Assembly: GCA_963818365.1 (NCBI GenBank)
Contig: CAWFRT010000005.1
Span: 4,920 to 68,919, forward strand
DNA from: an uncultured Actinomycetota bacterium
GTDB taxonomy: Bacteria; Actinomycetota; Actinomycetes; Propionibacteriales; Nocardioidaceae
Reading direction: 5' to 3'
DNA length: 64,000 nt
Shown here: one piece after another, positions 24,304 to 47,588 of the stretch
Numbering within the stretch: position 1 is the stretch's first letter
How the letters are laid out: every line of letters starts with the position of its first letter
Translations under genes and position numbers: made by a program
Notes under the pieces: generated by a model
Database searches by the model: none
What the model was told of the DNA's origin: nothing
The model's input: only the letters and a program-made list of their open reading frames with translations

Positions 24304-24347
24304 GAGCCCATGGTGCCCTAGATCGATCGGCACGGGCCGGGCGAGCC

Positions 24348-28179: not shown

Positions 28180-28188
28180 ATAGGAAAC
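28173..28188. promoter_or_regulatory. Candidate operator, copy 2 (AIR synthase-like/comA divergence)
   Basis: GTTGCATATAGGAAAC, 12/16 to consensus. Confidence 0.5.
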
Positions 28189-28209
28189 GATAGATTTAGG
28201 ATCCGACAC

Positions 28210-32339: not shown

Positions 32340-33856
32340 CTAAGCGCGTGCGGGTGGCGGGGTCGGTGACCTCCAAGGCGGCACCGGAGTTGATCGCGTC
32401 AGGTTTTCAGATGGAGAACGACGACGCGCCCTACCTCCACGATGGCCTTAACCTGGCCGACATCGCGCACGTTTTGGACCTGTCACGCCGAGGGCTTTTG
32501 CCGGCGGACGCCGAACGGTCGTTGCTTGAGATCCTGCTGGAGGTCTGCGAGATCGACGCGGAGGACTTCCCTTACGATCCCCACCTGGGGGAGCCTTACA
32601 ACTCACGAGAGCACTACTTCGTGGAGGCGCTCGGGGATGCTGCTGGTTGGCTCCATGCGGGTCGCCCACGTCGGGAGGCGGCCAGGATTGCCCTGCGCCT
32701 GCGGCTTCGACGGCAACTCGTTGACCTAGTCCTCGACGTCGTCGCCTTTGGCACTCAGGTGTGTGACCTAGCGACCGAACATGCCGACACCCTGATGGCC
32801 GATCAGACGTATCTTCAACAGGCTCAGCCCTCCACCTTTGGGCACTATTTGCTCACTTTTGCCCACCCGGCCCTGCGCGACGCCGAGCGGCTCCTGGACG
32901 AGCTGAAACAGATCAATGCCAGTCCTGGCGGGGCTGGGTGCGTCAATGGCACACGTCTCCAAGACGATCGCGGCTACCTCGCAAACCTGCTCGGCTTTGA
33001 CTCCGTGATCACCCACACTCGCGATGCGATGTGGCGGGTCGATGACCTGATCGCCTTGCTTGCGACCACCACCTCGGTGGTTTCTAATCTCAGCAAGTTG
33101 GCCGAAGACTTGGAGATCTTTTCCAGCGCCGAGTTTGACTTCGTCGATCTCGACGACTCGTTCAGCCGCTCAAGTGTGCTGATGCCCAACAAGCGAAACC
33201 CCTATGCGTTGTCGATCGTTCGCGGCGCCTCCGGCGTGTTGATCGGCCGGCTCTCCGGCTTTCTGGCGGTCACGAAGAGTCCGTCGGCGCGTTCGGACAA
33301 CTTCATTTATGCGTACGGCGAGGTGCCCCGCGCGCTGGACTTAGCCGAGCGGGTGACAGCGCTGATGGCCGGTGTGGTGCGGACCCTGGTGGTGCATCCA
33401 GACCGAATGTTGGCGGAATTGGACCGCGGCTATGCCCAATCGACAGATCTTGCAGAGTTCTTCACGGTGAAACGCGGCGTGGACTATCGCACGGCCTATT
33501 ACGTCGTCGGAGACGCCGTACGACAAGCGAGTCGGGAGGGGATTCCCGGACGTTTGATCGGCGCCGAGATCATCAACCGGGCGGCGGCGGCTCGCACGGG
33601 AACACCGTGGGATGTCACCGACGAAGAACTGGCCGAGGTGTTGAAGCCGGAGTCGATCGTTGCCTCGCGAACCGCCGAGGGTGGCGCGGCCAAAGCTGTC
33701 GTGCTGGCCGGGGTCGAAGCCACCCGTGCTCGACTCAGCCTGATCGCGGAGCAGGCCGACCAGCGGTTGCGTGACTTCGACGCTGTCGAAGTTTCATTGC
33801 TGGCGCAGGCCCGCAGCGTTGTTGCTACCCCGTCAGTGAAATCAGAGGAGAAGTGA
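32336..33856 (+). CDS. Argininosuccinate-lyase-like protein (XcbC-like), non-canonical catalytic motifs
   Basis: TYLQQAQP (Tyr where THxQ has His), SSVLMPNKRNP, TDLAE. Confidence 0.85.
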   Translation: MTKRVRVAGSVTSKAAPELIASGFQMENDDAPYLHDGLNLADIAHVLDLSRRGLLPADAERSLLEILLEVCEIDAEDFPYDPHLGEPYNSREHYFVEALGDAAGWLHAGRPRREAARIALRLRLRRQLVDLVLDVVAFGTQVCDLATEHADTLMADQTYLQQAQPSTFGHYLLTFAHPALRDAERLLDELKQINASPGGAGCVNGTRLQDDRGYLANLLGFDSVITHTRDAMWRVDDLIALLATTTSVVSNLSKLAEDLEIFSSAEFDFVDLDDSFSRSSVLMPNKRNPYALSIVRGASGVLIGRLSGFLAVTKSPSARSDNFIYAYGEVPRALDLAERVTALMAGVVRTLVVHPDRMLAELDRGYAQSTDLAEFFTVKRGVDYRTAYYVVGDAVRQASREGIPGRLIGAEIINRAAAARTGTPWDVTDEELAEVLKPESIVASRTAEGGAAKAVVLAGVEATRARLSLIAEQADQRLRDFDAVEVSLLAQARSVVATPSVKSEEK

Positions 33857-35277
33857 TGTCGAGTCCTGTCGTCGAACTGCCCACCGAAGTGGAAGTTGTC
33901 AACATTGGGTTGCCCCTGTTTGGGGAGGCGGTGGCTGCCCAGGGTCGGCCCGTGGTGCAGGTGGATTGGCGGCCGCCAGCGGATGGAAACCTTGAGGTGG
34001 TGCGTGCGCTGACCCGCACGTTTGGCGTGCACGAGGGCGTCATCGAAGCAGCAAACGCGGAAGTGTTTCGTCGCCTCGACACCGGGGTCGCGATGCTGAC
34101 CGGGGTGGCGACGGCAGCCGATGTGGTGCCTGACATCGAGGGTCAAACGATTCTGCACTGCGGTCCCGCCATCGAATGGGTGGACGTGTGCGATCCGCTG
34201 CGTCGGTCGATGCGGGCCGCGGTGGTGGCTGAAGGTTGGGCTGCTGAAGTGTCCGACGCTGATCGGTTGTTGGCCGCTGGGGACGTCCGGCTGGAGCCGG
34301 CAAATCTGCATCAGATGTGTGTGCCGATGGCCACCGCGATCGGGCCTTCCTCGCCAGTCTGGGTGGTGGAAAACCGAGACGGCAACACAGTCGCCTTCTC
34401 GCCGATCAATCAAGGGCCGGGCGAGGTGCCCTGGTTTGGTCGGGAGACTCCGGAAGCGATTGAGCGGCTGCGGTTTCTACGCGACGTGGCCGGGCCGTTG
34501 CTGGGTCGAGTGGTCACGGGGACCGGTCCGATCGACCTGTTTGCGTTGGCCACGCAGGGCATTGCCATGGGCGACGACATCCACATGCGCACCCAGGCGA
34601 CCACCAATCTGCTGATCCGCAACCTCTTGCCGGGCATCGTCGAGCACGGGGGTGCGCGGGGCGTTGAGTTCGCGTCGTACCTCTCTGGGAACCACCTGTT
34701 CTTCCTCAATCTGGCGATGGCAGCGGCCAAGTCGCTGACCCTGTGGGCAGAGGAGGTGCCTCATTCGAGCATCGTCACGACCATGTCGCGCAACGGAACG
34801 GGTTTCGGGATCCGGTTGGCGGGCAACGACGAGTGGTTCCTCACCGAGGCACCGCCGGTGAGCGATGCGCTTTACTACTCCGGCCAGTCCGCTGAGACAG
34901 CAGCCAAGGACATCGGCGACAGTGCTGTTTTGGAGTTGGTGGGCTTGGGTGGTCCAGCTGCGGCCGGCTCACCCGCCGTCGCGGCGTTCCTTGGCGGGAC
35001 AATGGCAGATGCGAGAGCGGCCACGGAATCCATGATCGAGATCTGCCGCGGGCCGAGTTCGCGCTTCAAACTGCCGATCATGGACTTTCGGGGTACGCCG
35101 GTGGGAGTCGACGTACGTTATGTCGCTGAAACTGGCATCACCCCCAAGGTCAACACTGGCGTGCTCCACATCTCCGATGGGTCTGGCCAGATCGGTGCCG
35201 GTGTGGCTACGGCGCCGGTCAGTTGTTTTGTCGAAGCCCTCCTCGACCTCGACCGCCGACTCACCGCCGAGAAGTAG
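33853..35277 (+). CDS. DUF1116 (YlbE/AllG-like) protein with an N-terminal FdrA-tail-like segment
   Basis: ILHCGP, MGDDIHMR, NHLFFLN, MSRNG, DIGDSA, INT-like VNTG; N-terminal VNIGL...VDWRPPADG. Confidence 0.88.
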   Translation: MMSSPVVELPTEVEVVNIGLPLFGEAVAAQGRPVVQVDWRPPADGNLEVVRALTRTFGVHEGVIEAANAEVFRRLDTGVAMLTGVATAADVVPDIEGQTILHCGPAIEWVDVCDPLRRSMRAAVVAEGWAAEVSDADRLLAAGDVRLEPANLHQMCVPMATAIGPSSPVWVVENRDGNTVAFSPINQGPGEVPWFGRETPEAIERLRFLRDVAGPLLGRVVTGTGPIDLFALATQGIAMGDDIHMRTQATTNLLIRNLLPGIVEHGGARGVEFASYLSGNHLFFLNLAMAAAKSLTLWAEEVPHSSIVTTMSRNGTGFGIRLAGNDEWFLTEAPPVSDALYYSGQSAETAAKDIGDSAVLELVGLGGPAAAGSPAVAAFLGGTMADARAATESMIEICRGPSSRFKLPIMDFRGTPVGVDVRYVAETGITPKVNTGVLHISDGSGQIGAGVATAPVSCFVEALLDLDRRLTAEK

Positions 35278-35283
35278 AACAAG

Positions 35284-35322
35284 GTGGAGGAAATAGCGCA
35301 CCTGGTGCGCCAATTCCTCCAC
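35284..35322. repeat. ~40-bp palindrome, family P
   Basis: GTGGAGGAAATAGCGCAC-CTG-GTGCGCCAATTCCTCCAC. Confidence 0.85.
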
Positions 35323-35343
35323 TTAGCGAGCCCGAACTAGCCT

Positions 35344-36033
35344 GTGGCGGTGAACACGTCCTTCCGGTCCGGGGTGAGGACGGGGGCACCGTTCGGAATT
35401 GTCTCCTTCGTCCTCTCCGCCTCCTTCGGAGTGTTGGCTGTGCAGGCTGGGTTCTCGTGGTTCCAGGTGCTCGTGATGTCGGCCCTGGTGTTCGCAGGTT
35501 CGGCACAGTTCGCCATGCTTTCGATCCTCGCGGGCGGCGGCAGTGGAGGGGCGGCCGTCGGGGCCTCAGGGTTGATGAACAGCCGATTCCTGGCGATGGG
35601 GATCGCCTTGGCACCCTCGCTCCCGGGTCGGTGGTGGTCGCGGGCCGCACAGGGCCAGGCGGTGGTGGACGCCTCGTGGGCGATCGCCAACCGCGGCGAT
35701 GGCACCTTCGACCGCTGGCTGCTCTTCGGCACCACGCTCCCGCAGTACGTCGGGTGGGTGGTCGGCGGGACACTCGGCGCGCTGCTCGGGGATGGGCTCG
35801 GCGACACGGATCGGCTTGGTTTTGACGCCATCTATCCCACCTTCTTTCTGGCTCTGCTGATTGCCGAACTCCGGGATGCGCGGTCGAGAGGGGTCGCCCT
35901 GGCCGGTGCCGCCATCGCGTTGGCGCTGGTGCCATTCACACCACCCGGCATACCGATCCTCGCCGCGAGCGTGGCGGCTATCGTCGGCCTCTGGTCCCCG
36001 CCCGCGACAGTGCCCGAGATTGGGGAGGCGTAG
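35344..36033 (+). CDS. AzlC-family membrane protein
   Basis: MSALVFAGSAQFA, MNSRF, VVDASWA. Confidence 0.9.
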   Translation: MAVNTSFRSGVRTGAPFGIVSFVLSASFGVLAVQAGFSWFQVLVMSALVFAGSAQFAMLSILAGGGSGGAAVGASGLMNSRFLAMGIALAPSLPGRWWSRAAQGQAVVDASWAIANRGDGTFDRWLLFGTTLPQYVGWVVGGTLGALLGDGLGDTDRLGFDAIYPTFFLALLIAELRDARSRGVALAGAAIALALVPFTPPGIPILAASVAAIVGLWSPPATVPEIGEA

Positions 36034-36035
36034 CC

Positions 36036-36356
36036 GTGATGTGGGGTCCTGCCCACCTCTGGTGGCCAATCTTGGGTTGCATCGTGCTGACCGCGCTGAT
36101 TAAGGCCGCGGGCCCGATTGCCCTGGGAGGTCGGGAGTTGCCACGGGCGCTCACAGGTGTGGTTAGCCTGATGGCCCCCGCATTGATTGCCGCCTTGGTT
36201 GTTACTGCCGCTTTTGCCGATGGACAACGGCTGGGCCTGGGCGCACACACTGTGGGGCTCGCGGTTGCCGCAGTGTTCCTCTGGCGTGGCAAGTCTGTTG
36301 TGCTGGCCGTTTTCGTGGCGGTTGCCGTCACCGCTGCCTTGCGCGCCGCCTTGTGA
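36036..36356 (+). CDS. AzlD-family membrane protein
   Basis: LIKAAGP, APALIAALV; follows AzlC. Confidence 0.85.
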   Translation: MMWGPAHLWWPILGCIVLTALIKAAGPIALGGRELPRALTGVVSLMAPALIAALVVTAAFADGQRLGLGAHTVGLAVAAVFLWRGKSVVLAVFVAVAVTAALRAAL

Positions 36357-36991
36357 AGGCGCGAGTGTTCGCCGTGTTCGGCCGGGCGATCTATGTCGCG
36401 AACGGCGACTCAGTTCGAGTGCTCGTCGACCACCGCTCGCCGCGTGGACCGCTACATCTACGAGTGCGGAAACTGCCATCGCTCCAGGTTGAGGACGAGG
36501 TTCTCCTCACCGCCGGGCTGGCGGAATTCCCGGGTGGGTGCGTGAGGATCGAGGATCCATGGGTGGGTGAGCAGCCCTTGCGGGGGCTCGCCAGGCTCGA
36601 CCCACGGCAGTCAGACATCGCCGAACTGGCTGTGCGCGTCGGCGGGCGAGGGCCCGGACTGACTCCGCAGGGGGACGACGTTTTGGCCGGCGTACTTCTT
36701 GCCCGTTGGGGCGTCTGCGACGACACCGAACGGCGCGAGCTCCTGGCCATCGCGCTGAGCGTGGACACCAACCGGATTTCTCGCGCCTTCCTGGCGGCGG
36801 CGGCCGGGGGCCAATGCATCGAGCCAGCCCACGACTTGTTGGTTGCGCTGTTGGTCGGCGATGAACCAGCGGCCGGCAGGGCCCAGGCCGAGCTCACGTC
36901 GTACGGCGCGACCTCCGGTGTCGCGCTGGCGCGGGGGATTCGCGCCGAGGTTGCCAACGATGGGTTGCACTTCTTGACGGTGCTCGGGTGA
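36353..36991 (+). CDS. DUF2877 (YlbF/AllH-like) protein
   Basis: GRGPGLTPQGDDVLAG, TNRIS, GATSG. Confidence 0.85.
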   Translation: MKARVFAVFGRAIYVANGDSVRVLVDHRSPRGPLHLRVRKLPSLQVEDEVLLTAGLAEFPGGCVRIEDPWVGEQPLRGLARLDPRQSDIAELAVRVGGRGPGLTPQGDDVLAGVLLARWGVCDDTERRELLAIALSVDTNRISRAFLAAAAGGQCIEPAHDLLVALLVGDEPAAGRAQAELTSYGATSGVALARGIRAEVANDGLHFLTVLG

Positions 36992-37055
36992 AGCGGGAGT
37001 CCATTGCCGCGGCAGCGGCGACGGGCTGCGTGCGTTGGGCGTTCCGCGCTCATCA

Positions 37056-37227
37056 GGTTTCGAGACGGCGCTAGCGCGCCTCCTCAACCAACAAGCACAC
37101 GGGGCTAGCGCGCTTGCTCAACCAACAAGCACACGGGGCTAGCGCGCTTGCTCAACCAACAAGCACACGGGGCTAGCGCGCTTGCTCAACCAACAAGCAC
37201 ACGGGGCTAGCGCGCCTCCTCAACCAA
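37056..37227 (+). repeat. REP-like element followed by four 34-bp tandem copies
   Basis: CAAGCACACGGGGCTAGCGCGCTTGCTCAACCAA at 37092, 37126 and 37160, variant at 37194. Confidence 0.9.
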
Positions 37228-37241
37228 CTACCGGACCGGCG

Positions 37242-37868
37242 CTAGCTGAGGCTGATGTGGACGAGCTCGGCCACTGCGCGCCCGGAATTGGTCCAGGTGG
37301 CGGAGTGATCAGTGAGGAAATGCAGTGAATCGCCACGCTTAAGAGCGAAGTCACGGCCGCCGATTGTGGCGTGCACCGCTCCGGCAACCACGTGCACCAA
37401 CGACTCACCACCACGTGCGGGCGCATCCTCCAACACGGCGCCAGCGGGCAACTTGATCGTCGTACCTCTGGCGCGGAACCGAGCCGGTGGTCCGGAGATG
37501 AGTACGACGTCGGCGCCGCCACGATCCACCGGCTCGCCGGTGCCAGACGCCACATGCCAGACGTCATGGGGATCCTCGGGCTCTTCGCCAATGAGGTGGC
37601 TGATCGGACGCTTGAAGACGGTGGCCAGTTTGAGCAGAGTCGTGATCGTCGGCACCATGTCGCCGCGCTCGATCTTGTGGATCGAAGCGGCGCTCACTTC
37701 GGCAATCGCACTCATCTGTTGGAGCGACAACCCCAAGCCGGCCCGCATGTCGGCCAGCCGCGGACCAATCCCGGCTACGACCTCCTCAACGCTCAGGGCG
37801 CCCGTGTCAGTCGCGTTTTCCGGCGTGACTGAAGTGCTGGCGGCGTTTGCAGCACTGCCTCTAGGCAT
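37242..37868 (-). CDS. XRE-family HTH regulator with C-terminal cupin domain
   Basis: LSLQQMSAIAEVSAASIHKIERG...PTITTL; GGESLVHVVAG, GDSLHF. Confidence 0.92.
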   Translation of the reverse strand: MPRGSAANAASTSVTPENATDTGALSVEEVVAGIGPRLADMRAGLGLSLQQMSAIAEVSAASIHKIERGDMVPTITTLLKLATVFKRPISHLIGEEPEDPHDVWHVASGTGEPVDRGGADVVLISGPPARFRARGTTIKLPAGAVLEDAPARGGESLVHVVAGAVHATIGGRDFALKRGDSLHFLTDHSATWTNSGRAVAELVHISLS

Positions 37869-37882
37869 TTGCCTGTCCTCTC

Positions 37883-37914
37883 TTGACGTCCCACTCGCGT
37901 TTACTATGATAGAC
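37883..37914 (+). promoter_or_regulatory. Promoter (TTGACG-16-TATGAT) overlapped by candidate operator copy 3
   Basis: GTTTACTATGATAGAC at 37899-37914, 13/16 to consensus. Confidence 0.6.
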
Positions 37915-37984
37915 GACAACCTCACATAATGGACACGCCATCGCTGACGTGTTCGCCGGTCTCGTCAGGAGTGTCCATCAAGTT

Positions 37985-39319
37985 ATGAAGACAGTAGTCA
38001 TCGGTGGCGGTTCGGCAGGCACGGGCGCAGCCGGAGGGGTGAAAGCGGCCAATCCCGAAAACGAAGTCGTTGTTTACACCGACTTCCAGGACATCGCCTA
38101 CAGCCCTTGCGGCATCCCATTTGTGCACGGCAAGGAGATCGAGAGTTTCTCCAAGCTCTTCTTGGCCACCAAAGAGGACTACGTCAAAGCCGGCATCGAC
38201 ATCCACTACAACACCACCGTCACCAGCATTGATGTGAAGGCAAAGACCATCGAGGTCGAGGGCGAAGGAACGGTCTCGTGGGATCGGCTGGTCATCGCGA
38301 GCGGCTTCAAGTACGCCAACCCCGGCGTTCCGGGCGGGGATCTCGACGGTCTCTACTACATGAAGAACATCCGCGAAGCCGAGATCTGGGACAAGCGCCT
38401 CGACACGGTCAAGAAGGCCGTCGTGATCGAGGCCGGACCGCTGGGTGCGGAGATGGTGAGCGCCCTTGCCCACCGCGGGATCGAGACTCATGTGGTCGAC
38501 CCTCACCCGTGGGCGTTGAGTGAGATCGCCGACCCCGACATCGTGGCTCCCGTCGAACAGGCCTGGCGAGACCAGGGCGTGCACCTGCACTTCAACACCA
38601 AACTCGAGGCTTTCCTCGGCAGCGGAACCGTGACCGGGGTGCGTACGTCGGAGGGTGATATCGACTGCGACATGGTTGTCGTGGCGACCCACAAGACCCC
38701 TGACACCAAGTTGGCGACGGCGGCCGGACTCAAGATCGGCTCGACCGGTGGGATCATCGTCGGCAACGACATGTCCACGTCTGCACCCGGGGTGTGGGCA
38801 GCCGGCGACTGCATCGAAGTGGTCCTGGGGCAGACCAAGATTCCGATCCAGGGGCTCACGGGCTCGCATGCCTATTCGCAGGGGAAGGTCGCTGGCTTCA
38901 ATGCTGGCGGTGGGGCTGGCGGGAAGGTCTATTCGCCGGTCTACGTCCCCTGGGGAATGCTCGCGGCCAACCAGATGGTGGGTGGGGTTGCCCTCGGCGA
39001 AACGCTGGCCGCCAGTCTCGGCATCCCACACATTGTGGGCAGTGCCCAGGGGATCTCGCGGGCTCGCTACTACCCCGGCGTACAACCGGTGAAGATCAAA
39101 CTCCTCGCCGACCCGGCAACTCACAAGTTGATCGGGGCCCAGATGGTCGGCGGCGAAGGCATCAAGGAGCGAGCAGACTTCCTGGCGATGTGTGTGCGCA
39201 AGGGCATCACCCTCGAGGACCTAGCGACGATGGAGAACGTCTATTCGCCGGCGATCGGCGCCCTTAACGAACCCATCTCCGTGGCCGCGCAAAACACTCT
39301 CGCGGCGTTGAAGAAGTGA
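37985..39319 (+). CDS. FAD-dependent pyridine nucleotide-disulfide oxidoreductase, CoA-disulfide reductase/NADH oxidase type
   Basis: IGGGSAG, AYSPCGIPF single redox Cys, WAAGDC, GAQMVG, YSP dimerization tail. Confidence 0.88.
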   Translation: MKTVVIGGGSAGTGAAGGVKAANPENEVVVYTDFQDIAYSPCGIPFVHGKEIESFSKLFLATKEDYVKAGIDIHYNTTVTSIDVKAKTIEVEGEGTVSWDRLVIASGFKYANPGVPGGDLDGLYYMKNIREAEIWDKRLDTVKKAVVIEAGPLGAEMVSALAHRGIETHVVDPHPWALSEIADPDIVAPVEQAWRDQGVHLHFNTKLEAFLGSGTVTGVRTSEGDIDCDMVVVATHKTPDTKLATAAGLKIGSTGGIIVGNDMSTSAPGVWAAGDCIEVVLGQTKIPIQGLTGSHAYSQGKVAGFNAGGGAGGKVYSPVYVPWGMLAANQMVGGVALGETLAASLGIPHIVGSAQGISRARYYPGVQPVKIKLLADPATHKLIGAQMVGGEGIKERADFLAMCVRKGITLEDLATMENVYSPAIGALNEPISVAAQNTLAALKK

Positions 39320-39326
39320 TCCGCCG

Positions 39327-39584
39327 GTGAGTTTCTCAACGTGGTTGCGATCCAACTCGCAGCATTATCTAGTGGCGGCCTCGCAAGAGGAGATCGCTAA
39401 GCGTCACGGCGTACCCGGCCCAAAGCGGTACGGCGGCTTCTCGGAGTTCTTTTGGCTCAGCATCTTTGCTCCTCTCTATCGAATCCTCCCCTGGAAGTTG
39501 CGCCATGCAGTCATGCGCGGAATGCCTGGGAGTCACCGTCGGCATTGGGACTACCCCACCGACACCACAGGACCGGCGATATGA
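39327..39584 (+). CDS. Small hypothetical protein in the operon
   Basis: Protein-like composition (FWLSIFAPLYRILPW, MPGSHRRHW); 7 bp after the oxidoreductase stop. Confidence 0.7.
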   Translation: MSFSTWLRSNSQHYLVAASQEEIAKRHGVPGPKRYGGFSEFFWLSIFAPLYRILPWKLRHAVMRGMPGSHRRHWDYPTDTTGPAI

Positions 39585-39739
39585 CGCGCCGAGCCTGCCC
39601 CAGAACGGCGCTAAGCCGAACCCGCGCAGCCACGCGCATGCAGTTGCACCAGCTCGGCCCTAAGAAGAACGAACCCAAGAAGAATCAGCCCGAGAAGAAT
39701 CAGCCCGAGAAAATCAGCGCAGTGAGAGGAATCTGAAAC

Positions 39740-40225
39740 ATGCCAAAGACAGTCAACTGGGGACCCCCAGCGGTCGGTGAGTCCCTTTTCAACGACGAGA
39801 AGTTGTTTGAGGACATCAAGGCCAACGAAGGCGAAAAGGCCTTCATCTTCATTCACACGGTGCCTTACGAGGGCTCGGTCGCCCTGGTGAACCTGCTGAC
39901 CTCGACGCGACTTCGTCGCAAGGGTTTCGAAGTCAACATCATCCTTTATGGCCCTGGCGTGCTCCTTGCTTCGGGCACCCGCGGCTTCCCGACCATTGGC
40001 GCCGAGGCGTTCCCAGGTCACATGGCGATCAACAAGCAACTGGGTGTGCTGATGGACGAAGGCGCAACGATCTATGCCTGCCGTTTCGCCATGGGTGCTC
40101 TCTACGGCATGGGTGAGGATCAATTGATCCCCGGGGTGAAGGCATTCCACCCGCTCGACGTACTCGACTCGGCGCTCACCGCCTGGCGTGCCGGCGCCTT
40201 CCAGATGAACACCTGGACGGTCTGA
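39740..40225 (+). CDS. MSMEG_0572/Sll0783 (NitB, DsrE-like) family protein
   Basis: FIHTVPYEGSVALVNLLT, LYGPGV, AFPGH, IYACRFAMGALYG. Confidence 0.88.
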   Translation: MPKTVNWGPPAVGESLFNDEKLFEDIKANEGEKAFIFIHTVPYEGSVALVNLLTSTRLRRKGFEVNIILYGPGVLLASGTRGFPTIGAEAFPGHMAINKQLGVLMDEGATIYACRFAMGALYGMGEDQLIPGVKAFHPLDVLDSALTAWRAGAFQMNTWTV

Positions 40226-40243
40226 TCTAGATACCCTCCCGCG

Positions 40244-40283
40244 GACGTCATACGAAGTGGTGCGAACCATTTCGTATGACGTC
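40244..40283. repeat. 40-bp palindrome (18-bp arms, 4-nt loop)
   Basis: GACGTCATACGAAGTGGT-GCGA-ACCATTTCGTATGACGTC, one mismatch. Confidence 0.8.
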
Positions 40284-40289
40284 TTGCGG

Positions 40290-40360
40290 GGTTTCGAGAC
40301 GGCGCTAACGCGCCTCCTCAACCACCGGACGGGACGGCGCTAACGCGCCTCCTCAACCAA
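40290..40360 (+). repeat. REP-like element, two units
   Basis: GGTTTCGAGAC-GGCGCTAACGCGCC-TCCTCAACCA, then a second hairpin and tail. Confidence 0.85.
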
Positions 40361-40414
40361 CATGCAGGACGGCGCGCAGGCGCCGGCTCAACCGCCAACC
40401 ACGAAGGAGGAGCC

Positions 40415-41083
40415 ATGGACGGCATTGCTGACATGGGAGGAAAACCCGGTTGGGGGGCGGCCAAGCCGCCGGCCGCCGACGAACCTGTCTTTGCCGAGGA
40501 GTGGGAGGGTCGAGCCTTCGCGTTGGCGCTGTTGTCGATGCGCACGGCGGGCACCAACCTCGACTCGTTCCGTCACGCGTTGGATCGCCAACCACGCGAG
40601 AAATACATCGACGACGGCTATTACGGACGGTGGCTGCACGCTGCCGAACTGATGCTCGTCGAGTCCTCGATCCTGGCCCCGGATGCGGTTGAGGCCCGCG
40701 CCCGCAATCTGCGCGGCGAAGGTATCCCCGAGCCCGGCATCCCCGAGCCCAACAAGCCCGACTATGCCCCAACCGCGGCGGGTTCACTGCGACCGATCGA
40801 CGACGTGCCCGTCTTTGCCATCGGAGACCGTGTACGCGCAAAGGACATTAGCCCCGCCAAGCACACCCGACTAGTCGGCTATGTGCGTGGCCGCGAGGGT
40901 GTGGTGTCGCGGATCGAACCGTCAGCGCTGTTGCCCGACACTCACGCCACTTTCGAGGGCGAAAACCCGCAAAACGTCTATTGCGTCAGTTTTGACTCCC
41001 ACGAATTGTGGGGCGCCGACGCGGAGTCATTCACCTTGAACATTGATCTTTGGGAAAGCTATTTGGAGGCTGCGTCATCATGA
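40415..41083 (+). CDS. nthB: Nitrile hydratase beta subunit
   Basis: [50 protein letters not shown]. Confidence 0.95.
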
Positions 41084-41661
41084 GCGAGGAACATCTGCCG
41101 ATCCAACTTCGAACCGAGGCGCTGGAGCAACTGCTTGTTGAGCGGGGACTGGTCGATCCGTCGATCATGGACCGCTTCATCAGCACCTACGCCAACGACG
41201 TTGGTCCGCTCAACGGCGCCAAGGTCGTCGCGAAGGCCTGGACCGATCCGGACTACAAAGCCCGCTTGCTTGAGGAGGGCACCGCCGCGATCGGCGAGCT
41301 CGGCTTCAAGGGGCCGCAGGGCGAGCACATGGTGGTCGTGGAGAACACTGACGACACCCACAACGTGGTCGTGTGCACGCTCTGCTCGTGTTATCCGTGG
41401 CCGGTGTTGGGATTGCCGCCGAGTTGGTACAAAGACCCGGCGTATCGCTCGCGGGTCGTCCGCGAGCCTCGCGCTGTGTTGTCCGAGATGGGCCTCAACG
41501 TGCCCGCTGAGAAGGACATCAAGGTCTGGGACTCCTCCTCTGAGGTGCGTTTCTTCGTGTTGCCACAGCGCCCGGCTGGGACCGAGTCCTTGTCGGAAGA
41601 GGAACTGGCGGCCCTAGTCACCCGGGACGCAATGGTCGGCGTTGCCGAGGTGTCCGTATGA
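41080..41661 (+). CDS. nthA: Nitrile hydratase alpha subunit, cobalt type
   Basis: [21 protein letters not shown]; CTLCSC is the Co-type motif (Fe-type has CSLCSC). Confidence 0.97.
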
Positions 41662-42047
41662 CGTCCGCCTCCGGCGTACTCGACATCGAAGGGGTGGCCG
41701 CTCCTCCGCGCTCTAATGGCGAGTTGGTCTTTGGCGCCCCCTGGGAGAGCCGAACCTTCGGGATGGCGATGGCGCTGTATGACGCCGGCGCCTTCGCGTG
41801 GGATGACTTTCGCGATGCGTTGATCGCGCGGATCTCGGCCTGGGAGGCGGACCCGCCCGAGGGCGAGTGCTACTCCTACTACCAATGCTGGCAGGGTGCC
41901 CTCGAAGATGTGCTCGCGGCCAAGGGTCTCGTCACCCCCGACACGTTGGCCACCCGCGGTGCCGAACTGGCGGCTCGTCCCGCAGGCTATGACCACGGTC
42001 ACGATCATGGCGACGGGGACCACGACCACGGAGACCACCACCACTAG
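41658..42047 (+). CDS. Nitrile hydratase accessory/activator protein with His-rich tail
   Basis: [23 protein letters not shown], tail [17 protein letters not shown]. Confidence 0.9.
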
Positions 42048-42054
42048 ACGAACA

Positions 42055-42097
42055 GAGTGGAGGAAATAGCGCACCTGGTGCGCTATTTCCTCCACTC
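42055..42097. repeat. Perfect 43-bp palindrome, family P
   Basis: 20-bp arms GAGTGGAGGAAATAGCGCAC / GTGCGCTATTTCCTCCACTC, CTG loop. Confidence 0.92.
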
Positions 42098-42104
42098 TAA
42101 TCCG

Positions 42105-43067
42105 CTACCCCACCCGGCCGAGGGCGATAACGCAGCCCTGTCCGCACGGGTGGAGGGTTCCCTCCCAGCCACCGGCTTCCAGGAGTTGTCCGATGCGCTG
42201 CGCGGTGTGACAGCCGCGGTTGTGGACCTGACCCCAACCCAGCCGCACGGTTTGTCGCCCGTCGACTAGGGCATCCAGATCTCGGTCGAGGTCGCGGTCT
42301 CGTTGGTGCGACGAAGCATGGAAGAGGCGGCCATCGAGTTCAACGGTCAGCCCGAAAGGCTCGAAAGTGAGGTCGTCATAGAGCTTGCCAACGGTGCCAA
42401 CCCACGAGACCTGATGTAACGCCGGAGGCAATCCGTGAGGTCGTTGGACAAGGCGAACGAAGTCGTTTTCCAACACCGAGTGGGTCCCCATCGCAACGTC
42501 ATTGAGGATGCCGATCAGCCAGTCGCGTCGCCGCAACCGCGGACGTTGGTGTAGCGCGGCCAGCAACCGCTCGGGCGTCGTACGCCGTGAGCGGCAGGCG
42601 TCCGCAACCACCTCAAGGGCGTCCATCTCGAAGGGCTGCTCGGCGGCAACATCGAGAACCGCCTCTTCAATCCGCACCCGAGGAGGGCTGCCCTCTCGGA
42701 CGCGGTCGTCAAAGTCGCCCTGTCGGCAGATGACATAGCCGGTTCGCGATTTGACCCGTCTCCCTTGCGAGACCGTGATCGTGATCGGGTCGGCGTCACG
42801 TTCGGGGTGCCAGCCCGGACCGTTGGCGACCCGCAGGGCAGATGTCTTGCCGAGCGCGGCCGGGGCATAGAACAACGTGCCTGCCCACGCCCGTTGTATC
42901 CAGGTCGGCTGACCTGTGTGGTTGATGAAGACCCCGGGCATCAGCCGCACCAGTTGGCGCCTCCGGAGCATTCGATCGAGCGCAGGCTTGGTTACACCGA
43001 TCGCCACCAGCTGTCGGCGAGACACCACACCGTTTTGGTCTGCGAAGAGTTGTCCGAGGGCATTCAT
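42105..43067 (-). CDS. AbiEi-antitoxin-like N-terminal domain plus DUF559/Vsr-like nuclease-fold protein
   Basis: QNGVVSRRQL, LVRLMPGVF, HSVLE, VELDGRLFH, DRDLDRD, TVRLGW. Confidence 0.8.
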   Translation of the reverse strand: MNALGQLFADQNGVVSRRQLVAIGVTKPALDRMLRRRQLVRLMPGVFINHTGQPTWIQRAWAGTLFYAPAALGKTSALRVANGPGWHPERDADPITITVSQGRRVKSRTGYVICRQGDFDDRVREGSPPRVRIEEAVLDVAAEQPFEMDALEVVADACRSRRTTPERLLAALHQRPRLRRRDWLIGILNDVAMGTHSVLENDFVRLVQRPHGLPPALHQVSWVGTVGKLYDDLTFEPFGLTVELDGRLFHASSHQRDRDLDRDLDALVDGRQTVRLGWGQVHNRGCHTAQRIGQLLEAGGWEGTLHPCGQGCVIALGRVG

Positions 43068-43118
43068 CGGTCCAGTGTGTGCGAATCGGCCGACCCAAGG
43101 CGCACGAGCCCCGCTGCC

Positions 43119-43143
43119 TGTGGATGAACCCGCGTGTGGATAA
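43119..43143. promoter_or_regulatory. Two DnaA-box-like 9-mers upstream of the AbiEi/DUF559-like gene
   Basis: TGTGGATAA (43135-43143, reverse complement of TTATCCACA) and TGTGGATGA (43119-43127). Confidence 0.5.
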
Positions 43144-43148
43144 CTAAC

Positions 43149-43185
43149 TGGAGGAAATGGCGCATCTGGTGCGCTATTTCCTCCA
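43149..43185. repeat. Palindrome, family P
   Basis: TGGAGGAAATGGCGCA-TCTGG-TGCGCTATTTCCTCCA. Confidence 0.88.
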
Positions 43186-43369
43186 ACTTAGTCGCCGGAA
43201 AGTTGAGGCTCGCTGATTTAGCGCGTGAATGTGGTCATGGCGACCGTCCAGCTGCGCAACTATGACGCCGCGGCCCATGGCGCTCCGCGGCAGCGAGGTG
43301 CCGATTCGACCCATGCCACGCCTGGCGCGCACCCAGGCGTCGAGTGCGTCGTCGACGTCACGGGCTGAA

Positions 43370-43696
43370 ATGGATGGTTTGATCGCCACCGCAATGGGGC
43401 TCTTCAAGATTGCGGCCGTCGTCGCCGCGACTCTCGCCTCGTCGTGGGCTCTCTTTATGTTCGGCTACTCGAACCCCGAACTGGCTGCGCAGTGGCTGCC
43501 GCGCTTCGATGTTGTCACCAGACACCTTTGGGGGCTGGGCGTCTTGCTCGCCCTATTGGGGCTGAGCATCGGTGCATCGACGAGTCTCATTGCGCGACGG
43601 ATAGGCCAGTCAGCGTGGGCCTTGGTGCCGGGCCTCTGGGTGGTGGCTTGCTTCGCCGTCCTTCTGCTCGGTCCGCATTCCTCGTCGGGTTCCTGA
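43370..43696 (+). CDS. Small hypothetical membrane protein (about three TM helices)
   Basis: Hydrophobic ORF lying between two family-P palindromes. Confidence 0.55.
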   Translation: MDGLIATAMGLFKIAAVVAATLASSWALFMFGYSNPELAAQWLPRFDVVTRHLWGLGVLLALLGLSIGASTSLIARRIGQSAWALVPGLWVVACFAVLLLGPHSSSGS

Positions 43697-43717
43697 CTCT
43701 GGTGGATAACAACTAAC

Positions 43718-43754
43718 TGGAGGAAATGGCGCACCAGGTGCGCTATTTCCTCCA
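43718..43754. repeat. Palindrome, family P
   Basis: TGGAGGAAATGGCGCAC-CAG-GTGCGCTATTTCCTCCA. Confidence 0.88.
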
Positions 43755-43774
43755 CTTAAGTGTCGACCGCCTCC

Positions 43775-44956
43775 TCAGCCGGCGGAAGGGTCGCCGTACA
43801 ACTCAAGGTGGCGGAGGGCGCTGCCGGTCCAGGAATACTTCTCGGCGACGGGTCGCCCGCCCTCGACCAGCCGCGCGCGCAACTCACCGTCGATCGCGAC
43901 TCGCTCCAACGCATCGGCCAGCGCCAGATGATCGGCCACAGCAGGCATCAACGCAGACACCCCGTCGACCAAATATTCGCCGAACACATCAATGTCAGAG
44001 GTCACCGCGGGCCGCCCAGCCGCCAACGCTTCCAGCACCGCGAGACCCCAGCCTTCGTTTGTCGACGGATAGGCGAGCGCGTCGCAGGCGTGATACCAAC
44101 CCACCAACTCTGACTCCGGCACAGTGCCGAGGATGATCACGTCTTTGTCCAACGCCAAACCCAACTCGTCGATCTCGCGCAGGCAATTGTCGCGATAGGC
44201 CGCATAGTCCTGAAACGAGTGACCACCCAACACAGCGACAGCTGGCGGCGAAGGCATCCGCGACTTCAACTCCGCGAGCGCCCGCACGAGATGGATCGCC
44301 CCTTTGCGTGGCTCGAGGCCGCCGACGGCAAGGAACAAGAAGCGATCAGGGGGGATGCCGGTGCGCGCCCGCAACTTTGCAACCAAGTCATCGTCAGCGG
44401 CCGCAAACCGCGGCAGATCCACTCCGTTCCACACCACTGATGCCTCAACCCCATAGTCCGCCAGCAACAATTGGCGCCAATGATCGCTGACCACGAAGAC
44501 CTGATCGGGTTCGTGGATCGCGGCGATCTGGCAATCGATGAGGGCCTGCGTGGTGAAGTCGTCGACGTGATGAACGGTGCGTACGACGCGCACGGGAGTG
44601 TCGCCGTGAGCGATCTGGGCCTCCCTCACCCGCACCGCCGCCCGCGCAGAAATGCAGTCCTGGGTGTGCAGGATGTCGAATCCTCCGACGGCCCGTTGCA
44701 ACCCGACCTCCAGGGCATCAATGCTGGCGAAGACCTTCTCTTCCAAGGTGCCTACATCGCCGGGAGCGGGGAACACCAGCGTCGGAGCAGCGACCTCCCG
44801 ATAGAAGCCCACCTCCGGATCGCCGAGCGTGATGATCGTGACATCCGCACCCGCGGCGTACATCGCCTCGCCCAACGCGAGAGTGTGCACCACCCCTCCG
44901 CGAGGTTTGGTGGAGTAGGTGATTAGCGCTATCCGCGGGCCAGATCTCTCGGGCAC
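43775..44956 (-). CDS. MSMEG_0565-family GT4 glycosyltransferase
   Basis: IALITYSTKPRGGVVHTLAL, LHTQDCIS, TVHHVDDFT, GGLEPRKG, EGWGLAVLEALA. Confidence 0.92.
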   Translation of the reverse strand: MPERSGPRIALITYSTKPRGGVVHTLALGEAMYAAGADVTIITLGDPEVGFYREVAAPTLVFPAPGDVGTLEEKVFASIDALEVGLQRAVGGFDILHTQDCISARAAVRVREAQIAHGDTPVRVVRTVHHVDDFTTQALIDCQIAAIHEPDQVFVVSDHWRQLLLADYGVEASVVWNGVDLPRFAAADDDLVAKLRARTGIPPDRFLFLAVGGLEPRKGAIHLVRALAELKSRMPSPPAVAVLGGHSFQDYAAYRDNCLREIDELGLALDKDVIILGTVPESELVGWYHACDALAYPSTNEGWGLAVLEALAAGRPAVTSDIDVFGEYLVDGVSALMPAVADHLALADALERVAIDGELRARLVEGGRPVAEKYSWTGSALRHLELYGDPSAG

Positions 44957-46512
44957 TACAGGACCTTCTTCACCAGAGCGGGGTCGCGGGTCGCAATAGC
45001 GCCCGCTGCCAACGCCGCCCGGGCGGCCGTCTCGGTGACGATGCAGCCAGCGGCTTCCAGGGTGGACCGTTGGGCGGCGAAACCCTGCGGATCCTGGTCG
45101 GTGCCGAGGACGTACGCCACGACTTGAGCGCCCCCGGCATCGTGAATCTCACGACAAGCCGGGGCAAGCTGTCCGGCGGGATCATCGTGGGACCCATAAC
45201 CGATCACCACGTCGAGCAGGATCGCTGCCAGGTCGGACTCTTGACCGGCCTCGCGTAGCAGCTCCAATCGAGCCTCCGGGTCGATCATCGGGTGTGGCCG
45301 ACCTTGGGTGTATTCCTCCTCGCCAAGATCCAAACAGATGTGCGAGCCTGCCGGGGCCGGGACATGGAGGGACTTGTCGAGCGGGGTGTTTGACCAGACC
45401 TTGCCAAGAATCGGCCCCAGGATGGTTAGTGCTTCGTAGCACAGTGTGCCGCCCGAATAGAGGCCCCGCACCAGCGTCTGCTCTTCGCGAAGTCTTCCCA
45501 GGGAGTGGGTGATGGAGCTTTCGAGTGAACCCACCACATCAGGCACTTCGTCGCCGAGCAACCGCAGCGTTTCGAGCACGCCTGCCTCAAGCGTCGCGGC
45601 CACGCGAGCCGTGGACGGTAGCTCAAAGGAGGCTGTCGTGCCGACGTACGCCGCCACAAAAGGCATGTCGCCAGCCTCGGCGATCACTGCCCTGGCTACG
45701 TCGTCGGCGGGGGGCTTCGACACAAAGAGGATGGCTTCGACGTCATCGCGGGCTCGCAGCGACGCCACCGCCAGCCGGGCCATCCGGCCGTCGACTTCGG
45801 CGTTGAGGTCGCGCCCACCCAGCCCGATCACGGCGATCACACCCTCGCCAAATCGGTCGAGCAAACTCATCGCTTCCTGGGCGCCCGTGCCGGCGGCCGC
45901 GATCACGCCGATCCGGCCAGGCTTCACCACGTTGGCAAAGCCAAGCCCGGTCTCGCCCAACATCGCGGTGCCCGCGCCCGGACCCATCACCAGCCGCCCA
46001 AGCGCACGGGCCCGGTCCTTGAGTTCGATTTCAGCATCGACCGGGATGTTGTCGCTAAAGAGCAACACGTCGAGCCCAGCCGACAGCGCCTTGTGGGCCT
46101 CAAGCGGGGCATAGTCGCCGGGCACAGAGATGACGGCGACATTGCTGCCGGGTTGGGCTTCGATGGCGGCCCGCAGAGAGCGAGGGCTGGCCACCGGGCC
46201 GGACGCAGCCGATTCACGCGTGCTGAAAACGGCGGTTTCGGCAGCGTCCAGGGCCGCCGCGACAACTTCATCTGAAGCAGAGCGCACCGCAAAGAAGAGA
46301 TCGTTTCCGCCGGCCGGCTCGATCGACGCCGTGTCGAAACCTTCGGCTCGCAATTCCTCTAGATTGGCGGACGTCGCCATCGCGACCGCCGTCCATTCGA
46401 CTCCGGCAACGGCATACATTGCCCGCGTTCCCGAGAGTTGCACCACCGAGTCGACGTAGGTGTCGCGGAACACCTTGAGGGCCCGATTGCTTGCTGCGCT
46501 TTCCCGGCTCAT
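44956..46512 (-). CDS. fdrA: FdrA-family acyl-CoA synthetase-like protein (AllF-like)
   Basis: YVDSVVQL, ISVPGDYA, FSDN, MGPGAGT, GLYSGGTLCYE, DLGEEEYTQGRPHPMIDP. Confidence 0.9.
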   Translation of the reverse strand: MSRESAASNRALKVFRDTYVDSVVQLSGTRAMYAVAGVEWTAVAMATSANLEELRAEGFDTASIEPAGGNDLFFAVRSASDEVVAAALDAAETAVFSTRESAASGPVASPRSLRAAIEAQPGSNVAVISVPGDYAPLEAHKALSAGLDVLLFSDNIPVDAEIELKDRARALGRLVMGPGAGTAMLGETGLGFANVVKPGRIGVIAAAGTGAQEAMSLLDRFGEGVIAVIGLGGRDLNAEVDGRMARLAVASLRARDDVEAILFVSKPPADDVARAVIAEAGDMPFVAAYVGTTASFELPSTARVAATLEAGVLETLRLLGDEVPDVVGSLESSITHSLGRLREEQTLVRGLYSGGTLCYEALTILGPILGKVWSNTPLDKSLHVPAPAGSHICLDLGEEEYTQGRPHPMIDPEARLELLREAGQESDLAAILLDVVIGYGSHDDPAGQLAPACREIHDAGGAQVVAYVLGTDQDPQGFAAQRSTLEAAGCIVTETAARAALAAGAIATRDPALVKKVL

Positions 46513-47480
46513 CGGCTGCTCGCAAGAGAGTCGGCCAGCACGATGGTGGTCCCGACGCCGCGCGAATCGTCAGCAGTGGAGTCCAAGGCGTCCGCCACCA
46601 GTTCGGGCGAAGTGATGATCGCTCGCCTGCCGCCGTTGCGGACAAAGCTGATCGCCGCGCGCACTTTGGGGCCCATCGAGCCCTCCGGGAACTGGCCTTC
46701 GTCGAGGTAGCGCTCGGCTTCCACACTGGTGATGACGTCCAGATATCTGACTGTCGGCTTGCCGAAGTCGATCGCCACCTTCTCCACACCCGTGACCAAC
46801 ACCAAGGTATCAGCGCCGATGGAGGAGGCAACCTGCTCGGCGGCGTAGTCCTTGTCAACGACGGCGTCCACGCCGACGTAGCCATCCACGCGAGAAACCA
46901 CCGGGATCCCGCCGCCGCCAGCGGCAATCACGACCGCGCCAGAGTTCACCAGGGTGCGGATCGCGGCGCTTTCGACGATCGAGATCGGTCTCGGGGAGGG
47001 TACGACGCGACGCCAGCCGCGACCCGAATCCTCAACCATCGTCCAACCACGATCGGTTGTGAGCGTCTTCACCTGATCCTCGCTGAAGAACGGTCCAATT
47101 GGCTTAGTTGGCCGGGTGAAAGCAGGATCATCGGCGGCAACCACGGTGTGGGTGACCACTGCCACCGCCTCGACTTGGCCGTGCGAGGCGCGGCGCAAAG
47201 AGAGGGCAATCATGCTGCCAAGGTAGGCCTCGGTCATGGCGCCAAGGGTGAAGAGCGGCTGAGCCGGGACCAAGTCAGCACCCTCTTCCTGCTGAATCGC
47301 CAACGAGCCGACCTGTGGTCCGTTTCCATGCACGACCGCAACATTCCAGCCTGACTGGATGAGGTGGTTGATGCCGTGGGCCATGGCGAGGGAGTTGATC
47401 TCCTGCTCGTCGTACGTCCCGCGTTGACCCTCCTTGGTGAAGGCGTTGCCGCCCAGGGCGACCACCACAGAACGACGCAT
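46509..47480 (-). CDS. Carbamate kinase
   Basis: VVALGGNA, HGNGPQVG, PTKPIGPF, RRVVPSP, GGGGIP, DAVVDKD, GSMGPK. Confidence 0.95.
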   Translation of the reverse strand: MRRSVVVALGGNAFTKEGQRGTYDEQEINSLAMAHGINHLIQSGWNVAVVHGNGPQVGSLAIQQEEGADLVPAQPLFTLGAMTEAYLGSMIALSLRRASHGQVEAVAVVTHTVVAADDPAFTRPTKPIGPFFSEDQVKTLTTDRGWTMVEDSGRGWRRVVPSPRPISIVESAAIRTLVNSGAVVIAAGGGGIPVVSRVDGYVGVDAVVDKDYAAEQVASSIGADTLVLVTGVEKVAIDFGKPTVRYLDVITSVEAERYLDEGQFPEGSMGPKVRAAISFVRNGGRRAIITSPELVADALDSTADDSRGVGTTIVLADSLASSR

Positions 47481-47552
47481 TTGCGGGCCTTTCAGTTCAC
47501 TTGGCCGACGGGATTCGGCTGGCTAAACGCCGCATCTCAGGGATCGAAAGTG

Positions 47553-47588
47553 TTGGACAATACGACGTTGACGTTTACTATAGTAAAC
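47553..47588 (+). promoter_or_regulatory. Promoter (TTGGAC-17-TACTAT) with perfect 16-bp operator palindrome, copy 4; probably a leaderless mRNA
   Basis: GTTTACTATAGTAAAC at 47573-47588, immediately before ATG 47589. Confidence 0.7.

Follow-up and report, generated by a model that had tools for sequence, protein, structure and literature searches.

The stretch of DNA analyzed here (the window) comprises 64,000 nucleotides of contig CAWFRT010000005.1 (positions 4,920 to 68,919 of the forward strand; GenBank assembly GCA_963818365.1) from an uncultured member of the Nocardioidaceae (Actinomycetota). Pfam, NCBIfam and BLASTP against Escherichia coli K-12 were used to assign its genes, and the window holds one complete AllF/AllG/AllH-type carbamoyltransferase set with its own carbamate kinase (CK). 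The AllG (DUF1116) subunit is encoded on the plus strand at 33853-35277 (474 amino acids (aa); Pfam PF06545, 221.9 bits, cut-off 27) and the AllH (DUF2877) subunit on the same strand at 36353-36991 (212 aa; PF11392, 68.3 bits, cut-off 25). The FdrA (AllF) subunit lies on the minus strand at 44956-46512 (518 aa; Pfam CoA_binding and Ligase_CoA) and lacks the C-terminal tail of E. coli FdrA. The dedicated, AllK-like carbamate kinase is at 46509-47480 on the minus strand (323 aa; Pfam AA_kinase); it passes the NCBIfam carbamate kinase model NF009007 (321 bits, cut-off 266), falls below the arcC equivalog model TIGR00746 (347 bits, cut-off 358) and is 40% identical to E. coli YbcF (AllK). Alignment to E. 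coli FdrA, YlbE and YlbF, which the first-pass annotation of the window had proposed, was done by BLASTP and gave 37% identity for FdrA (to residues 6-492), 39% for AllG (residues 64-463 to YlbE 5-409) and 38% for AllH (residues 98-189 to YlbF 160-253, only the C-terminal ~95 residues being alignable). The AlphaFold2 model of AllG has a predicted local distance difference test score (pLDDT) of 85, and its top fold match is 3CLQ with a template modeling (TM) score of 0.93.

The module genes are arranged in three translationally coupled units. AllG is the final gene of an operon that resembles the bacterial coenzyme M biosynthesis (Xcb) genes; its start, either GTG at 33853 or ATG at 33856, overlaps the TGA of the upstream XcbC-like lyase gene (GTGATG). 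AllH follows an azlC-azlD pair, and its start overlaps the azlD stop. The third unit, 9.7 kb from AllG, runs on the minus strand in the order kinase, FdrA, GT4 glycosyltransferase; the kinase stop overlaps the FdrA start and the FdrA stop overlaps the GT4 gene start. The first-pass annotation had described DUF1116 at the end of a coenzyme-M-like operon, DUF2877 after azlCD, and fdrA plus a carbamate kinase with a glycosyltransferase ~10 kb away, and these positions, families and junctions are confirmed. FdrA, AllG and AllH are each present in a single copy in the 3.4-Mb genome. The other carbamate kinase gene of the genome is downstream of an arginine-deiminase-like gene, which adjoins an amino acid permease gene.

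The characterized counterpart is the oxamic transcarbamylase of E. coli, AllF-AllG-AllH, with its catabolic carbamate kinase AllK (Kim & Kim 2024, PMC11326118; 2022, PMC9843812). AllFGH interconverts oxalurate plus Pi with oxamate plus carbamoyl phosphate by splitting the N-carbamoyl bond, which leaves an amide (oxamate) as product, and AllK uses the carbamoyl phosphate to make ATP (PMC11326118). The window set has the same four protein families as allFGHK (37-40% identity), all of its Pfam domains, the kinase next to FdrA and a ~50-aa putative linker. The arrangement differs: allFGHK is one operon beside allECD, whereas the window genes form three units without allECD neighbors in a genome without AllD and, unlike those of E. 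coli, lie among Xcb- and Nit1C-type genes, to which they are translationally coupled. The window AllH is 59 residues shorter than E. coli AllH, and the tail that is carried on FdrA in E. coli is carried on AllG in the window.

The module is a fixed part of a conserved, uncharacterized supercluster of ~25 kb found mainly in Actinomycetota. The supercluster consists of Nit1C/MSMEG_0565-0572-type genes, an XcbA-E coenzyme-M-like set and a CoA-disulfide-reductase-like flavoprotein, usually with a cobalt nitrile hydratase. A scan with an AllG alignment, one genome per species, returned 454 relatives and the 80 closest were kept; adding four from an earlier single-protein scan, two of them overlapping, made a set of 82 loci at 60-84% identity, almost all from Actinomycetota and one from Hoeflea. 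Gene content was counted within ±10 kb of AllG in the 52 loci with at least 19 kb of sequence. ComA is present in 41 of the 52, XcbA in 41, an XcbD-like gene in 42 and an XcbC-like gene in 44; the flavoprotein was counted in 38, the NitB-like gene in 36 and the nitrile hydratase alpha subunit in 36; the kinase is in 39, FdrA in 32, the radical SAM protein in 31 and the AIR-synthase-like protein in 40. The XcbC-like lyase gene is immediately upstream of AllG in 51/82 loci and AllH immediately downstream in 38/82. Of the 43 loci with FdrA, 37 have it next to the kinase and 34 next to the GT4 gene. Genes absent from the flank were found just beyond it in four genomes: the hydratase is 2.5-3 kb past the flank in two Kribbella genomes, and XcbA, present in all five Pseudonocardia-type genomes tested, could be placed in two of them, ~20 kb away from AllG and on its contig. 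The Pseudonocardia loci have AllG(-AllH) followed directly by the hydratase genes and GT4-FdrA-CK. The set had been called dispersed on the basis of the window; across the 82 loci its genes are fixed members of one supercluster in which block order and orientation are shuffled and the gene set stays constant.

The MSMEG_0568-type radical SAM gene and AllG were sought in 301 genomes sampled evenly across the phylum. The former was found in 19 genomes, the latter in 37 and both in eight, and in five of these eight the two genes are at most 10 kb apart on one contig. The other AllG genes of this sample score ~290-330 bits on PF06545 versus 200-245 for supercluster copies, and the window AllG lineage is a separate clade on the tree. 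Nine of the other AllG loci were fetched and are mostly compact operons in which FdrA adjoins AllG with the kinase and/or AllH close by. In Acrocarpospora, the neighbors of a fused AllF-AllG plus AllH are a PucR regulator, a xanthine permease and an enzyme resembling xanthine dehydrogenase. The compact CK-AllH-FdrA-AllG operons and the fused forms (e.g., Acrocarpospora corrugata) share the module with the window, and their tail is on the side of AllG or, in a fusion, within the protein; they differ in being contiguous and, where the context is readable, purine-linked. Since the other copies occupy compact operons or purine contexts, the supercluster copy is a distinct lineage in a different context. 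The literature search found no paper that links AllFGHK with Nit1C, Xcb or nitrile hydratase genes, and the only other non-allantoin context it returned is AllFGHK beside triuret and biuret genes in nitrifiers (PMC12625717).

The Xcb part of the supercluster is represented in the window by the XcbB(ComA)-XcbA-XcbD-XcbE-XcbC-like operon at 28132-33856 on the plus strand (Pfam, NCBIfam). XcbA passes its NCBIfam cut-off (254.6 bits, cut-off 150); the XcbD-like (563.6 bits, cut-off 600), XcbC-like (413.7, cut-off 575) and XcbE-like (197.4, cut-off 450) proteins are below theirs, and ComA scores 236 bits against an archaeal cut-off of 280. All five families of the coenzyme M biosynthesis set XcbA-E of Xanthobacter autotrophicus Py2 (Wu 2022, PMC9457059) are present in this one operon. 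The window differs from Xanthobacter in the scores of the XcbC-, XcbD- and XcbE-like members, in having no alkene/epoxide genes and in the operon ending in AllG.

The Nit1C cluster (Podar 2005, PMC1199592) is represented by nitBCDEFGH of Pseudomonas, sll0783-0787 and the gpr cluster MSMEG_0565-0572 (PMC6039565). A plus-strand group at 37949-42047 encodes the CoA-disulfide-reductase-like flavoprotein, a NitB/Sll0783-like protein and the beta, alpha and accessory proteins of a cobalt-type nitrile hydratase (Pfam, NCBIfam); the DsrE-like gene at 39740 belongs to the MSMEG_0572/Sll0783 (NitB) family and is over the NCBIfam cut-off. The MSMEG_0565-family GT4 glycosyltransferase that ends the CK-FdrA-GT4 operon is at 43775-44956 on the minus strand (TIGR04047, 343.7 bits, cut-off 259.85). 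Divergent from the kinase operon, the plus-strand segment 47963-49581 encodes an MSMEG_0568-family radical SAM protein (TIGR04043, 382.9 bits, cut-off 303.7) and an MSMEG_0567-family GNAT protein (TIGR04045, 96.6 bits, cut-off 68.45). The AIR-synthase-like gene, closest to the sll0787 family (27196-28209, minus strand; Pfam AIRS and AIRS_C), is divergent from the Xcb operon, and its best match, sll0787 TIGR04049, gives 251.7 bits against a cut-off of 321.3. The window thus shares with Nit1C the NitB/Sll0783-like, radical SAM, GNAT and glycosyltransferase families, all over their cut-offs, an AIR-synthase-like gene and conservation as a group across taxa. It differs in three respects: a cobalt nitrile hydratase follows NitB in place of the sll0784-type nitrilase, the NitH protein resembling flavin-containing monooxygenases is replaced by the CoA-disulfide-reductase-like flavoprotein, and the AllFGHK and Xcb genes are absent from classic Nit1C.

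The tail element of AllG is encoded at 33877-34032 (plus strand; residues 9-60, strand-helix-strand-helix) and has as its E. coli homolog the last 50 residues of FdrA. AllG 9-55 and E. coli FdrA 507-553 align with 40% of residues identical (E 3e-7), AllG 8-54 matches positions 506-552 of the 555 in the NCBIfam FdrA profile NF004760, and the segment also matches the end of crystallized E. coli FdrA, 3DMY. The window FdrA ends just short of this segment. It covers positions 8-496 of NF004760; with positions 497-555 of the profile unmatched, its score of 385 bits stays under the cut-off of 433 for the whole protein. The E. coli tail was also searched against the six frames of the genome, which returned a single significant site, the AllG N-terminus (E 7e-6). 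The BLASTP, NF004760 and six-frame searches agree with the earlier observation that the DUF1116 N-terminus resembles the C-terminal segment of E. coli-type FdrA and that the 518-aa FdrA has no counterpart.

A phmmer search with AllG against 1.84 billion cluster representatives was used to determine how common this architecture is. The search returned 2646 relatives, and architectures were counted in the 113 that have a complete AllG body N-terminus among the best 150. About 57 of the 113 lack the tail and, at 410-430 aa, are of the E. coli type; 16-33, depending on the criterion, have an N-terminal tail (460-480 aa), and 13-16 are FdrA-AllG fusions of ~1000 aa with the Pfam layout CoA_binding, Ligase_CoA, AllG and the tail between the halves. 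Taken by clusters at 50% identity, roughly one third of the family carries the tail on AllG. Many further FdrA-AllG fusions were recovered with the concatenated window proteins as query, including those of Acrocarpospora, Herbidospora and Brevibacterium isolates. The motif [VI]x[VI]N[VI]GL..FA[ED][AS]L..Q......VDWRPP..G is common to all three tail architectures. A quick maximum-likelihood tree shows the three tail states interleaved, with at least five changes of each forced by well-supported branches, and the small clade that contains E. coli YlbE also has one tail-bearing and one fused member. The compact CK-AllH-FdrA-AllG operons of other Actinomycetota likewise have the tail in the AllG reading frame, and in 81 of the 82 window-related loci it is at the AllG N-terminus and nowhere else.

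AlphaFold models were examined for the fold and the borders of the tail. The tail has a pLDDT of 72-82 in the AllG model and 81-91 in the model of a natural fusion (P0273; overall pLDDT 88.6, predicted TM score 0.74). In the middle of the fusion, disorder is confined to residues 524-537, which separate the FdrA body from the tail, and beyond the tail there is a second coil; the fusion model compared with 3DMY gives a TM score of 0.54 and a root mean square deviation of about 20 Å. The two loops that flank the tail are the two places where the genes are observed to split, and for this reason we read the ~50-aa tail as a linker element that would sit between the FdrA and AllG modules, encoded with AllG, with FdrA or inside a fusion. 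To the first-pass annotation the tail appeared to have moved from FdrA onto DUF1116. The interleaved states on the tree and the natural fusions contradict a move in this lineage, and the apparent move is better described as a shift of the gene boundary. A lineage-specific tail transfer was rejected, tail-on-AllG being common, recurrent and the usual actinobacterial state. The linker reading predicts that the 50-aa element would physically connect FdrA and AllG, and the natural fused and split forms suit structural work.

Among the fusions, credence is given to the FdrA-AllG type alone, because this type turns up repeatedly in genomes of isolates. Apparent CK-FdrA, FdrA-GT4, lyase-AllG and AllG-AllH fusions were not used as evidence, frameshift errors being likely. 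One metagenome contig (L102, ENA contig_21627) has the supercluster with a ComA of 115 aa, a lyase plus PALP open reading frame (ORF) of 577 aa and a lyase plus AllG ORF of 1012 aa; these split and merged genes are probably frameshift errors and call for caution on fusions from such assemblies. Other AllG-family fusions seen are GntR-AllG (P0162, 551 aa), AllG-NmrA-like (P0199, 781 aa) and FdrA-AllG with a ChrR-type cupin (P0147, 1095 aa).

The genome was searched for the other enzymes of the pathway in which AllFGHK is known. No AllD, AllE or AllA homolog was found in the genome, which is 99% complete, and no homolog of E. coli allA, allB, allC, allD, allE, gcl, glxK or glxR within ±10 kb of AllG in the 82 loci. 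The window has no allantoinase or allantoate amidohydrolase, as stated in the first-pass annotation. We give almost no credence to ordinary allantoin/oxalurate catabolism with the remaining pathway genes elsewhere in the genome. An M20 protein (C4:600423-601640) is in its favor and passes the NCBIfam 'allantoate amidohydrolase' cut-off (538 versus 372 bits), but the gene is beside hutI- and hutF-like genes, and the allB-like matches of the genome are a dihydropyrimidinase and a dihydroorotase. The canonical allantoin pathway was rejected on these assignments and the missing AllD, AllE and AllA. The M20 gene belongs to a hut-type group on contig C4 (597920-612155) with imidazolonepropionase-like and formimidoylglutamate-deiminase-like genes, ~7 kb upstream of the group of arginine deiminase, permease and carbamate kinase. 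AllFGH was recognized in 2024 as a new transcarbamylase class with one known substrate (PMC11326118). A whole AllFGH lineage resides in a conserved pathway without an oxalurate route, which indicates that AllFGH enzymes must act on at least one substrate besides oxalurate.

We propose that the module breaks down a carbamoyl donor other than oxalurate to yield nitrogen and ATP, within the conserved supercluster and with the tail as linker, and place the probability of this reading at about 45%. The AllFGH-type enzyme would transfer the carbamoyl group of a pathway intermediate to phosphate, as in E. coli with another substrate, and the kinase would convert the carbamoyl phosphate to ATP, CO2 and NH3. 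The outcome would be nitrogen release with energy conservation in a nitrogen-scavenging pathway. The carbamoyl-bearing intermediate would be a ureide or thiocarbamate, as opposed to oxalurate from allantoin. In loci with nitrile hydratase it could be supplied by hydration of an X-C≡N compound (X = nitrogen or sulfur), an N- or S-cyano compound giving the ureide or thiocarbamate that would act as carbamoyl donor. Because the Xcb genes are adjacent, S-carbamoyl-coenzyme M is the most attractive putative substrate. The Mycobacterium smegmatis cluster MSMEG_0565-0572, which includes nitrilase-like and amidase-like genes, is induced >500-fold by nitrogen starvation (PMC6039565), and nitrogen release by the module would fit this response of a related cluster. 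The function of Nit1C-type genes has been open since 2005, and the cluster also holds a coenzyme-M-like pathway without nearby alkene metabolism; the proposed carbamoyl-phosphate-forming step would narrow the chemistry possible between the parts of the supercluster.

Several points weigh against this proposal, beginning with the fact that we infer both the substrate and the direction of the module. Nitrile hydratase is absent from three of the five carrier genomes tested, whose loci keep Xcb, AllG and AllH, with FdrA in the flank of one. The retention of AllG and AllH in genomes without nitrile hydratase indicates that a link to the hydratase product is not obligatory. Of the 19 genomes that carry the Nit1C-type radical SAM gene, 11 lack AllG, and AllH was not found in two of five genomes that lack an adjacent copy, these genomes being metagenome-assembled. 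The radical SAM, GNAT and glycosyltransferase genes and a neighboring regulator of the Streptomyces antibiotic regulatory protein (SARP) type fit biosynthesis equally well.

In the biosynthetic direction, the kinase would make carbamoyl phosphate from ATP, CO2 and NH3 and the AllFGH-type enzyme would carbamoylate an amide, amine or thiol. The amide formed by nitrile hydratase, for example, could be converted to an acylurea as a step towards a small metabolite that the radical SAM, GNAT, glycosyltransferase and Xcb enzymes would build. The E. coli enzyme was assayed in this sense, from oxamate and carbamoyl phosphate to oxalurate; FdrA is translationally coupled to a glycosyltransferase, a SARP-type regulator adjoins the cluster in the window and in 16/82 loci, and the gene content has the flavor of tailoring enzymes. 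Net carbamoylation is nevertheless judged unlikely. Bacterial carbamate kinases are typically catabolic, the nitrogen-starvation response of related Nit1C-type clusters argues against the spending of nitrogen, the AllFGH Km for the amide acceptor is very high at 36.9 mM, and there is no known product.

The first-pass annotation had suggested that the set replaces an amidase, and the gene content of the 82 loci was used to evaluate this idea. No recurrent amidase or nitrilase is present among their unassigned ORFs, and an amidase-signature gene occurs in one locus only (L023). A sll0784-type nitrilase was not found over cut-off in the 301-genome sample, and the window genome has a single nitrilase-like match, which is not linked to the cluster and reaches 204 bits (cut-off 503). 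In hydratase-less variants the slot beside the NitB-like gene holds an Amidohydro_2 enzyme (L013, L024), and in L023, a genome not searched for hydratase, it holds an Amidohydro_2 enzyme plus the amidase-signature enzyme. As a strict amidase substitute, AllFGHK would free the amide nitrogen of an ordinary carboxamide produced by nitrile hydratase. The scarcity of amidase genes, the presence of nitrilase-like and amidase-like genes instead in the M. smegmatis version, and the Pseudonocardia gene order, where AllG(-AllH) runs directly into the hydratase genes, are consistent with such a role, but the known reaction yields an amide and the nitrogen of a simple carboxamide cannot give carbamoyl phosphate. 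Retention of the set where the genome has no nitrile hydratase, and its coexistence with an amidase and an Amidohydro_2 enzyme in L023, also argue against substitution, which is rated improbable. What stands of the earlier suggestion is that amidase and nitrilase genes are missing from nearly all loci; what does not is a dependence on nitrile hydratase and the chemistry of a simple amide.

The content of the slot next to NitB varies among related loci (L013, L023, L024, L035, L052, L090), with nitrile hydratase in most and Amidohydro_2 (PF04909) in several. L090, a more remote relative, lacks both hydratase and Xcb genes and carries the kinase, NitB, Amidohydro_2, radical SAM, GNAT, AIR-synthase-like and AllG genes.

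The fold of FdrA raises the question of whether a carbamoyl group is involved at all. FdrA has the fold of nucleoside diphosphate (NDP)-forming acyl-CoA synthetases and was aligned with E. coli FdrA and SucD; next to 3DMY, the folds most similar to it are those of ADP-forming acetyl-CoA and 4-hydroxybutyryl-CoA synthetases and of the alpha subunit of succinyl-CoA synthetase. NDP-forming acyl-CoA synthetases produce an acyl phosphate by phosphorolysis of an activated acyl group. The FdrA-type subunit with AllG and AllH could act on an acyl-coenzyme M- or acyl-CoA-like group and the kinase homolog on another acyl phosphate, and the coupling of AllG to the Xcb thiol pathway in 51/82 loci and the kinase score below the arcC equivalog cut-off are in line with this. 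Non-carbamoyl chemistry is distinctly improbable: the kinase scores above the cut-off of the carbamate kinase model NF009007 and shares 40% identity with AllK, and the four-gene combination is that of a characterized carbamoyl system, kept in compact operons elsewhere.

A specific version of carbamoyl breakdown, which we regard as a long shot, has the AllFGH-type enzyme as a thiocarbamate (or ureide) phosphorylase in cofactor-borne assimilation of cyanide or nitrile nitrogen with substrate-level phosphorylation. The Xcb-made coenzyme-M-like thiol would capture a cyano group as an S- or N-cyano adduct, and nitrile hydratase, or Amidohydro_2 in the variants without it, would turn the adduct into an S- or N-carbamoyl compound. 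Phosphorolysis by FdrA/AllG/AllH would then give carbamoyl phosphate and the regenerated thiol, and the kinase would form ATP and NH3. The AIR-synthase-like protein resembles HypE, an enzyme that interconverts S-carbamoyl and S-cyano groups; the C-terminal cysteine of HypE is absent from the window protein. If true, the phosphorylase scheme would account for the long-unexplained Nit1C-type genes.

Two gene pairs in the window interrupt the supercluster. The azlC-azlD pair (35344-36356, plus strand; Pfam AzlC and AzlD) splits AllG from AllH, and an AbiEi-like gene with its 155-aa neighbor orf155 (42105-43696) separates the hydratase genes from the GT4-FdrA-CK operon. Neither pair occurs in any of the 82 related loci, which indicates that both are recent insertions in this genome. 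A repeat search located palindromes resembling repetitive extragenic palindromic (REP) elements at 35284-35322, 42045-42107, 43149-43185 and 43709-43763, with the family sequence GTGGAGGAAATAGCGCACC / GGTGCGC.ATTTCCTCCAC. One copy immediately follows the AllG stop, one comes behind the hydratase accessory gene, and orf155 has one on either side; the copies bracket AbiEi plus orf155 and flank azlCD on one side only. A tandem repeat of a 34-nt unit (37065-37228, 4.8 copies, 96% identity) lies between AllH and a helix-turn-helix-cupin regulator gene, and each unit can fold as a short minus-strand hairpin.

A search for GlnR boxes gave two matches versus 1.3 expected, neither in a promoter region, and promoter and terminator scans were at chance level. 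A small protein of ~90 aa without a family match is encoded at 26817-27179, between the OsmC-like and AIR-synthase-like genes, and occurs in at least 23 related loci; it may be the counterpart of the unexplained ~100-aa ORF6 of Nit1C. The hypothetical ORF at 47364-47966, before the radical SAM gene, also has no family match and is weakly similar to a ~210-aa protein at the same position in at least 10 related loci. Upstream of the cluster, larC-larE-larB and cbtA are at 21607-25675, and LarB, LarC and LarE accompany the supercluster in 8-9 related loci.

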